Source: Escherichia coli
GTDB taxonomy: Bacteria; Pseudomonadota; Gammaproteobacteria; Enterobacterales; Enterobacteriaceae
Assembly: GCF_002854065.1 (NCBI RefSeq)
Contig: NZ_CP024147.1
Length of the DNA: 64,000 bases
Direction: 5' to 3' (one strand)
In this document: one piece after another, positions 59,066 to 59,739 of the stretch
Layout: every line of letters starts with the position of its first letter
Position numbering within the stretch: position 1 is the first letter of the stretch
Notes under the pieces: model-generated
Seen by the model: only the letters and a program-made list of their open reading frames with translations
What the model was told of the DNA's origin: nothing
Database searches by the model: none
Position numbers and translations under genes: made by a program

Positions 59066-59739
59066 AGAGTAAAACTCATTAGGATTATCAGAATTCGGCC
59101 AATGCATTGCAAAAATGAAATACAAAGAGAGATGTGTGCAGGCGCTTAGCCGCGAGGGGCATGGCGAAGCCATACAGAAAGCACCAGCATTCAGAACTCC
59201 TGTGAAAGCGGCATAGTGCCGCTGCTCAGGAGTTTTGTTATGACCCGTATCGTGCTGAACGTTGCCACCCTATGATGCGATTAAAAAAACTCACCGTCGA
59301 GCCGATGATTGACGTCAATGCTATCGGATGATGCCGGGGGTGTTCCGGAAGGAATTCCTTGTTTCCCGAACTGTTACCAACAAAATTATAACGATGAGCA
59401 AGTAAAGACCGGTTGGTGGCAGTACTGACCGGTCTGTGATGGAAGATTAATTTCACCTTAAATCCTGGTGCTGTTAGGATGCTGACGTTTTTCGGCTACA
59501 CCATTCAGATTATGCAAATAAATATCCCTGAATATAATATATTCATAGCACCCATAACTCATCCTGGGCGATAACTAAACCATTTTTGAGTAACAAATGA
59601 AACAACTGCAACGCTCTTATTATTTCTGGAAAACGTCTCGCAAAAACAAAACAACATGCAGAAATCCGCTTTCGTTAATTAATTTTCCGGCGTAATTTTC
59701 GCACATACATTAATGAGTAATATATGTAAGGTGGTGGTA

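Follow-up and report, generated by a model that had tools for sequence, protein, structure and literature searches.

The DNA considered here is a non-coding stretch upstream of yiiE in Escherichia coli, contained in a 64,000-nucleotide segment of contig NZ_CP024147.1 (the window). The gene order here is fabY (yiiD), an open reading frame (ORF) for a protein of 615 amino acids (aa) with a CX5R motif, a spacer, yiiE, and yiiF, followed by fdhE, fdoI, and fdoH on the - strand. In the window, fabY occupies positions 55852-56841, the 615-aa CX5R gene 57218-59065, and yiiF 60176-60418. RefSeq places the yiiE start at 59740 (mapped from position 4675 of locus L001), behind the ribosome-binding site (RBS) AAGGTGG, and the non-coding stretch spans 59066-59739. 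An initial annotation had drawn the region at 59066-59712; its non-coding nature holds, but its right end, set by an ATG at 59713, gives way to the RefSeq start. We read 59066-59739 as an ordinary intergenic spacer, decayed and mosaic, at a site between fabY and yiiE that is a hot spot of recombination, with no discrete new element, and assign this reading a probability of roughly 0.8.

The eight ORFs that overlap the region encode 31-72 aa, and none of them has a Pfam match at E<=1, in line with the earlier remark that no ORF is convincing. Two of them, those at 59479 and 59597, were followed through the alleles, and both are broken by insertions or deletions (indels) or by stop codons in other E. 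coli. The largest, of 72 aa, lies on the opposite strand and has no Pfam match, and a chaperone-sized gene is indeed missing.

Seventeen other Escherichia loci (L001-L017) were retrieved and compared by BLAST and alignment, and the 647 bp of 59066-59712 were searched by megablast against 5426 complete E. coli genomes. The query matches 5405 of these genomes, with very uneven coverage. The first segment, 59066-59131 (+ strand), flanks the 615-aa gene on its 3' side and is islet-specific by BLAST against L001-L017: it is present in L001, L004, L005, L006, L012, and L016, which all carry that gene, and absent from L002, L003, L007, L009, L010, and L013-L015. The junction 59096-59170 occurs in 795 of the 5426 genomes; XJ34, O157:H7 PV15-279, and TR01 are strains arranged exactly like the window. 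Strains bearing the antitoxin gene nadS align from 59132 onward. In K-12-type strains, 57316-59361 is gone as one clean deletion, which leaves ~33 codons of the 615-aa gene, and the sequence resumes at 59362; this deletion junction is present in 1997 genomes. In E. whittamii (L009) and L007-type E. coli, homology starts only at 59625. The segment 59362-59624 is by far not so restricted, being found in 5378 of the 5426 genomes (99%), at a median of one place per genome and a maximum of two. The median for the whole region is also one. Both figures speak against a dispersed repeat of the repetitive extragenic palindromic (REP) or intergenic repeat unit (IRU) kind, expected in many copies. Two loci of the set, L008 and L011, are filed as Bacillus coahuilensis and as an uncultured Robinsoniella, and their yiiE/yiiF DNA is 91-97% identical to that of E. 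coli; they are almost certainly E. coli contamination of those assemblies.

Positions 59132-59156 (+ strand) hold the 3' end of nadS, a relic of its last ~8 codons (~25 nt) with a 1-nt deletion and several substitutions. In the alignment, ATGTG-TGCAGGCGCTTAGCCGCGAG faces ATGTGCTGCAGGCACTTAACCGTTAG, the 3' end of the annotated nadS in L002, L004, L006, and L010. Matches to NCBIfam NF041265 (60.4 bits) and Pfam HTH_3 identify NadS as an Xre-type antitoxin, whose partner in other strains is a RelE/HigB-2-like toxin. Of the RelE/HigB-2 and NadS module, the region contains no toxin or antitoxin ORF, and only 59132-59156 aligns with it. The former nadS 3' untranslated region (UTR) follows, with a small hairpin of five base pairs, AUGGC-GAA-GCCAU, at 59161-59173 (+ strand, from folding), which forms in three of the four alleles folded and is lacking in that of L010.

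An intrinsic (Rho-independent) terminator is predicted at 59195-59239 on the + strand. The GC-rich stems noticed earlier near 59190-59230 resolve into one two-tier hairpin at 59195-59232, with outer stem CUCCUG/CAGGAG and inner stem AGCGGCA/UGCCGCU, followed by the T tract TTTTGTT (59233-59239), which directly abuts the CAGGAG arm and is interrupted by one G. Folding of 59185-59245 gives a free energy (dG) of -30.4 kcal/mol and a z-score of -5.8, with none of 200 shuffles as stable; the local hairpin windows were picked after looking, and such z-scores overstate the significance here and for the second hairpin described below. The two-tier fold is common to all four allele types despite 1-2 nt indels in the inner loop. 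A plain terminator scan missed the site, its rule being a simple stem with a loop of 3-8 nt only. The same terminator directly follows nadS in L002, L004, L006, L010, and L013-L017. It lies 40-85 nt past the nadS stop codon in L002, L004, and L006, and here 130 nt past the stop codon of the 615-aa gene, on the same strand in each case. The predicted terminator is inherited from the nadS operon, and is here the first one downstream of the 615-aa gene. The earlier proposal of a terminator for the upstream gene is supported by the strong hairpin and T tract on the same strand, with the qualification that its origin is the nadS operon. The inherited terminator would end the transcript of the 615-aa gene and would shield yiiE from read-through. 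A second terminator-like site, at 59308-59291 on the - strand, was rejected: its fold has a z-score of -1.06, and its T run is merely the deletion junction at a run of seven A residues (see below).

The nadS relic and the terminator hairpin travel together as a 103-bp block (59132-59234), running from the last ~8 nadS codons through the hairpin. B2-type strains such as MS14384 carry the block twice (L004 3567-3669 and 5382-5486). These two copies, direct repeats of 103-105 bp and 89.5% identical, enclose three genes: one for an alpha/beta hydrolase, relE, and nadS. The window carries a single copy, 103/103 identical to the first (left-hand) copy of L004. It looks like the hydrolase-relE-nadS cassette was gained or lost by recombination between the block repeats. 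Related toxin-antitoxin modules are found on Salmonella and Enterobacter plasmids at ~72-74% identity, and their homology stops short of the terminator block, at ~598-606 of the 721 query positions. In L002, a promoter-like site TTGTTA-16 nt-TATAAT (2380-2430) precedes the relE-nadS operon and ends 1 nt ahead of the ATG, and the relE-nadS mRNA is probably leaderless. Just upstream of that site stands a perfect palindrome, GTACGTCA-A-TGACGTAC, a likely candidate operator. A second, unrelated toxin-antitoxin cargo occupies the same fabY-yiiE site in E. whittamii and some E. coli: a - strand pair of higB and a helix-turn-helix (HTH) gene, together with an internally deleted alpha/beta hydrolase relic (L007 3210-3460, L009 3560-3885).

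Downstream of the terminator, a translated search for pseudogene remnants, as the initial annotation had suggested, was productive: tblastn finds pieces of two hypothetical genes that B2-type strains keep intact between nadS and yiiE. At 59240-59289 (+ strand), ~17 codons remain from the start of a hypothetical gene for a 73-aa membrane protein, which L004 has intact at 5492-5713. The N terminus of the 73-aa protein matches at 59251-59289 (RAERRHHMARLKK versus RAERCHPMMRLKK), and the nucleotide alignment reads ATGACCCGT(A)ATCGTGCTGAACG; a 1-nt deletion shifts the frame, and the remaining reading is MTRIVLNVATL*. Next, at 59290-59398 (+ strand), come ~34 codons from the end of a hypothetical gene for 92 aa, which L004 keeps whole at 5765-6043; they contain an in-frame stop codon and a frameshift, and tblastn returns two segments with an E-value of 5e-6 and identities of 73% and 61%. 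Relative to L004 and L006, a ~470-bp deletion (alignment columns 175-566) at the A7 run 59283-59289 fuses the two relics. Plasmid and phage searches with the 92-aa protein returned only unnamed hypothetical relatives, from Salmonella plasmids. The initial annotation had spoken of degraded remnants of islet genes. Remnants they are, namely the nadS tail and the fused 73-aa and 92-aa pieces, but they derive from an adjacent cassette rather than the islet. In strains with the intact 73-aa gene, its Shine-Dalgarno (SD) sequence AGGAG lies within the 3' arm CAGGAG of the terminator, 7 nt before the ATG (L004 5440-5500; compare window 59227-59242). The hairpin would hide the RBS of this gene, since the SD sequence forms its 3' arm.

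A second hairpin is located at 59406-59435 (+ strand), 7 nt past the position of the 92-aa gene stop codon. The inverted repeat gaccggt/accggtc reported earlier is exact at 59407-59413 and 59428-59434, and extends to a 13-bp stem pairing 59406-59418 with 59423-59435, which has no T tract. On the + strand, it folds with a dG of -20.3 kcal/mol and a z-score of -4.2, and none of 200 shuffles is as good. All 12 distinct alleles compared have hairpin 2, and its core arms do not vary even in a ~75%-identical allele. It occurs once per genome and so belongs to no repeat family. Most likely, it is a 3'-end hairpin left over from the 92-aa cistron. From 59436 to 59600, alignment reveals a variable spacer with no recognisable element; in other alleles, an indel of 19 bp follows ~59492, and 63 bp are inserted after ~59539. 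The identity of 59393-59600 between alleles is 75-98%, against 95-99% for fabY, yiiE, and fdhE in the same strains, which fits relaxed constraint on this part. As a whole, the 647 nt are only moderately more structured than shuffled sequences (z about -2.2 on either strand, 20 shuffles).

The alternative that survives best gives these hairpins a role as RNA. The region might encode an unannotated small RNA (sRNA), derived from the 3' UTR at 59157-59239 or independent around hairpin 2 (59399-59500); more broadly, 59157-59239 might be a functional RNA module, either a 3'-UTR sRNA or a structure hiding the RBS of the 73-aa gene, or hairpin 2 and its flanks might be part of an unannotated sRNA. 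We consider both the narrower and the broader version unlikely. The 3' modules of Hfq-dependent sRNAs consist of a small hairpin, a single-stranded stretch, and a terminator with a U tail, and 59157-59239 resembles them in layout, with its small hairpin, ~20 unpaired nt, and strong terminator ending in a U tail. It is kept as two diverged copies in B2-type strains. A role as an RNA module, if true, would explain why it survives in these two copies and has outlasted the decay of the genes to either side. Hairpin 2, for its part, is found in every allele, the segment 59362-59624 that includes it is nearly universal in E. coli genomes (99%), and in three of its four one-sided changes C has become U, so that G-U pairing is kept on the + strand only. 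C-to-T is, however, the commonest type of mutation, and these changes weigh little. RNAalifold on eight distinct alleles finds changes on both sides in none of the 27 pairs, at a diversity too low to weigh for or against an RNA; it counts four one-sided changes preserving the pairing in hairpin 2, and five cells that are broken or gapped. A scan with YiiE gave four loci, too small a sample for covariation. In the eight alleles, no compensatory changes are seen, and that of L012 breaks one pair of hairpin 2. The covariance-model scan that had been advised (Rfam 15 cmscan of 56500-61000 at E<=10) returned no match within 59066-59739. The promoter scan found no promoter-like site on the + strand, variation here exceeds that of the neighbouring genes and includes indels of 19 and 63 bp, and a literature search on yiiD and yiiE turned up no RNA reported there. 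The small RNA suggested by the initial annotation accordingly finds no positive evidence in Rfam, in compensatory changes, or in conservation relative to the flanking genes. The only near-threshold match of the same Rfam scan lies outside the region, to ES036 (CssrF) at 60503-60545 (36.8 bits for a gathering score of 37.6); beside it is a REP-like element with a partial naRNA4 match, both falling within 60463-60545 between yiiF and fdhE.

The right-hand part of the spacer belongs to yiiE. The segment 59601-59700 (+ strand) is duplicated upstream of yiiF, where a repeat search finds a 72%-identical copy at 60040-60139. Another pair of repeats falls inside the yiiE and yiiF coding regions. Repeat pairs in both coding and upstream sequences indicate that yiiE and yiiF are tandem duplicates, upstream regions included. 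That the right-hand ~140 bp are a yiiE upstream region duplicated before yiiF had been missed earlier. Within this segment, a conserved ~20-bp box, TGGAAAACGTCTCGCAAAAA, occupies 59627-59646 (+ strand); as TGGAAAACGYCTCGCAAA, it stands at 59627 for yiiE and at 60066-60085 for yiiF. In the form TGGAAARCGYCTCGCAAA, it has copies before both yiiE and yiiF, and a third one in the gap from the hydrolase gene to relE (L002 2285 and L004 4666). The box does not occur beyond this locus, and the median E. coli genome has it at two places. The breakpoint of L007 and L009 (59625) coincides with the box, which suggests that their deletion occurred by recombination between box copies.

The last segment, 59701-59739 (+ strand), is the proximal 5' region of yiiE, with the SD sequence AAGGTGG at 59728-59734 ahead of the start codon at 59740, and is nearly invariant across alleles. 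Since strains having only 59625-59739 still keep yiiE, the control region of this gene may be placed within these limits, and the last ~115 bp would carry the yiiE promoter, any operator, and the RBS. A published listing of transcription starts includes Klebsiella yiiF only. A scan for sigma-70 promoters returned three sites, all on the - strand and at chance level (3.9 expected). A peak of RpoS in genomic systematic evolution of ligands by exponential enrichment (SELEX), listed for the yiiD>yiiE spacer (PMC5493296), seemed to favour a yiiE promoter but was not used: by our own coordinate arithmetic anchored on fdoG in L003, it maps at ~56950, upstream of the 615-aa gene.

The box itself has been weighed as a sigma-54 promoter of yiiE, with its second copy serving yiiF. 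The consensus of the -24/-12 elements recognized by sigma-54 is GG-N10-GC, and the TGG-N9-TCGCA of the box (TGGAAAACGTCTCGCA at 59627-59642) fits this spacing; moreover, its GG and GC are kept in every listed copy and allele. The -24 element reads TGGAAA and not TGGCAC, however, and the duplication alone accounts for a box shared by yiiE and yiiF. Both the portion of the K-12 sigma-54 chromatin immunoprecipitation sequencing data considered here (PMC4591121) and RpoN genomic SELEX (PMC8743547) list sites in fdoI and in the fdoG/fdhD spacer and none at yiiE or yiiF. A sigma-54 promoter is, on this balance, very improbable. Still harder to credit is a long regulatory 5' leader of yiiE (an attenuator or riboswitch) starting from a far-upstream promoter: both hairpins do lie upstream of yiiE on its strand and no good sigma-70 promoter is found close to the gene, but the hairpins are dispensable for yiiE, given that E. 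whittamii and L007-type E. coli keep it with only ~115 bp upstream, K-12 wholly lacks the first hairpin, no alternative mutually exclusive structures and no Rfam match were found, and the terminator would block such a transcript. The attenuator named in the initial annotation likewise finds no evidence.

The 615-aa gene upstream deserves a separate comment. Its ORF (57218-59065) contains CKSAKDRT, a CX5R motif of the kind present in SopB/IpgD-type phosphoinositide phosphatases; the protein has no sequence match in Pfam, NCBIfam, or the PDB. A type III effector chaperone next to a SopB/IpgD-like gene was considered and rejected, as the small acidic ORF (~110-130 aa) to be expected beside an effector gene is not present. 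RefSeq often splits the ORF into a "pseudo hypothetical protein" and a "transposase"; L001 and L004 nevertheless have an open frame. In the O157-type strain CV261 (L005), there is a real premature stop at codon 298.

Reading 59066-59739 as a decayed mosaic spacer rests on the homologies, deletions, folds, and distribution across strains observed above. Three points speak against it. Some selection may act on hairpin 2, in view of its invariant arms and of the presence of 59362-59624 in nearly all genomes. The activity proposed for the terminator is deduced from its sequence and fold. Finally, the promoter scan finds no + strand sigma-70 site scoring at least 9/12 upstream of yiiE, and so gives no location for the promoter. 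Taken together, the analysis yields no new kind of element and no sign of a new RNA or protein in 59066-59739.

A decayed mosaic spacer matters little beyond annotation. It explains the absence of a chaperone or partner gene after the 615-aa CX5R gene, which would borrow the terminator of a deleted toxin-antitoxin operon. For annotators, 59132-59398 should be regarded as pseudogene relics, and the yiiE control region as confined to about 59625-59739. The comparison further shows that the stretch between fabY and yiiE is a hot spot of variation among strains, rearranged, it seems, through short repeats of its own (the ~20-bp box and the 103-bp terminator block).

Compared with known systems, the segment 59132-59239 corresponds to the 3' end and terminator of a type II RelE/HigB-2-NadS module as found in other E. 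coli, but only ~25 nt of the antitoxin gene remain here and no toxin. With the intrinsic terminators of enterobacterial operons, 59195-59239 shares a GC-rich hairpin that runs straight into a T tract, past the end of a gene and on its coding strand; it departs from them in its two-tiered stem, which has an internal loop, and in the interruption of TTTTGTT. As in many bidirectional terminators, an upstream AGAA is able to pair with the U tract. The hairpin that would cover the RBS of the 73-aa gene has a layout reminiscent of type I toxin control. The 73-aa and 92-aa pieces combine homology to intact genes elsewhere with disabling lesions, which is what characterizes pseudogene relics. The fabY-yiiE site resembles other strain-variable hot spots of E. 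coli in its differing cargo between the same two core genes, its nested deletions, and its truncated genes, and differs from them in having no integrase, tRNA gene, or insertion sequence (IS) element. Each piece is of a familiar kind, be it the intrinsic terminator, the duplicated upstream region, or the pseudogene relics of a strain-variable interval.
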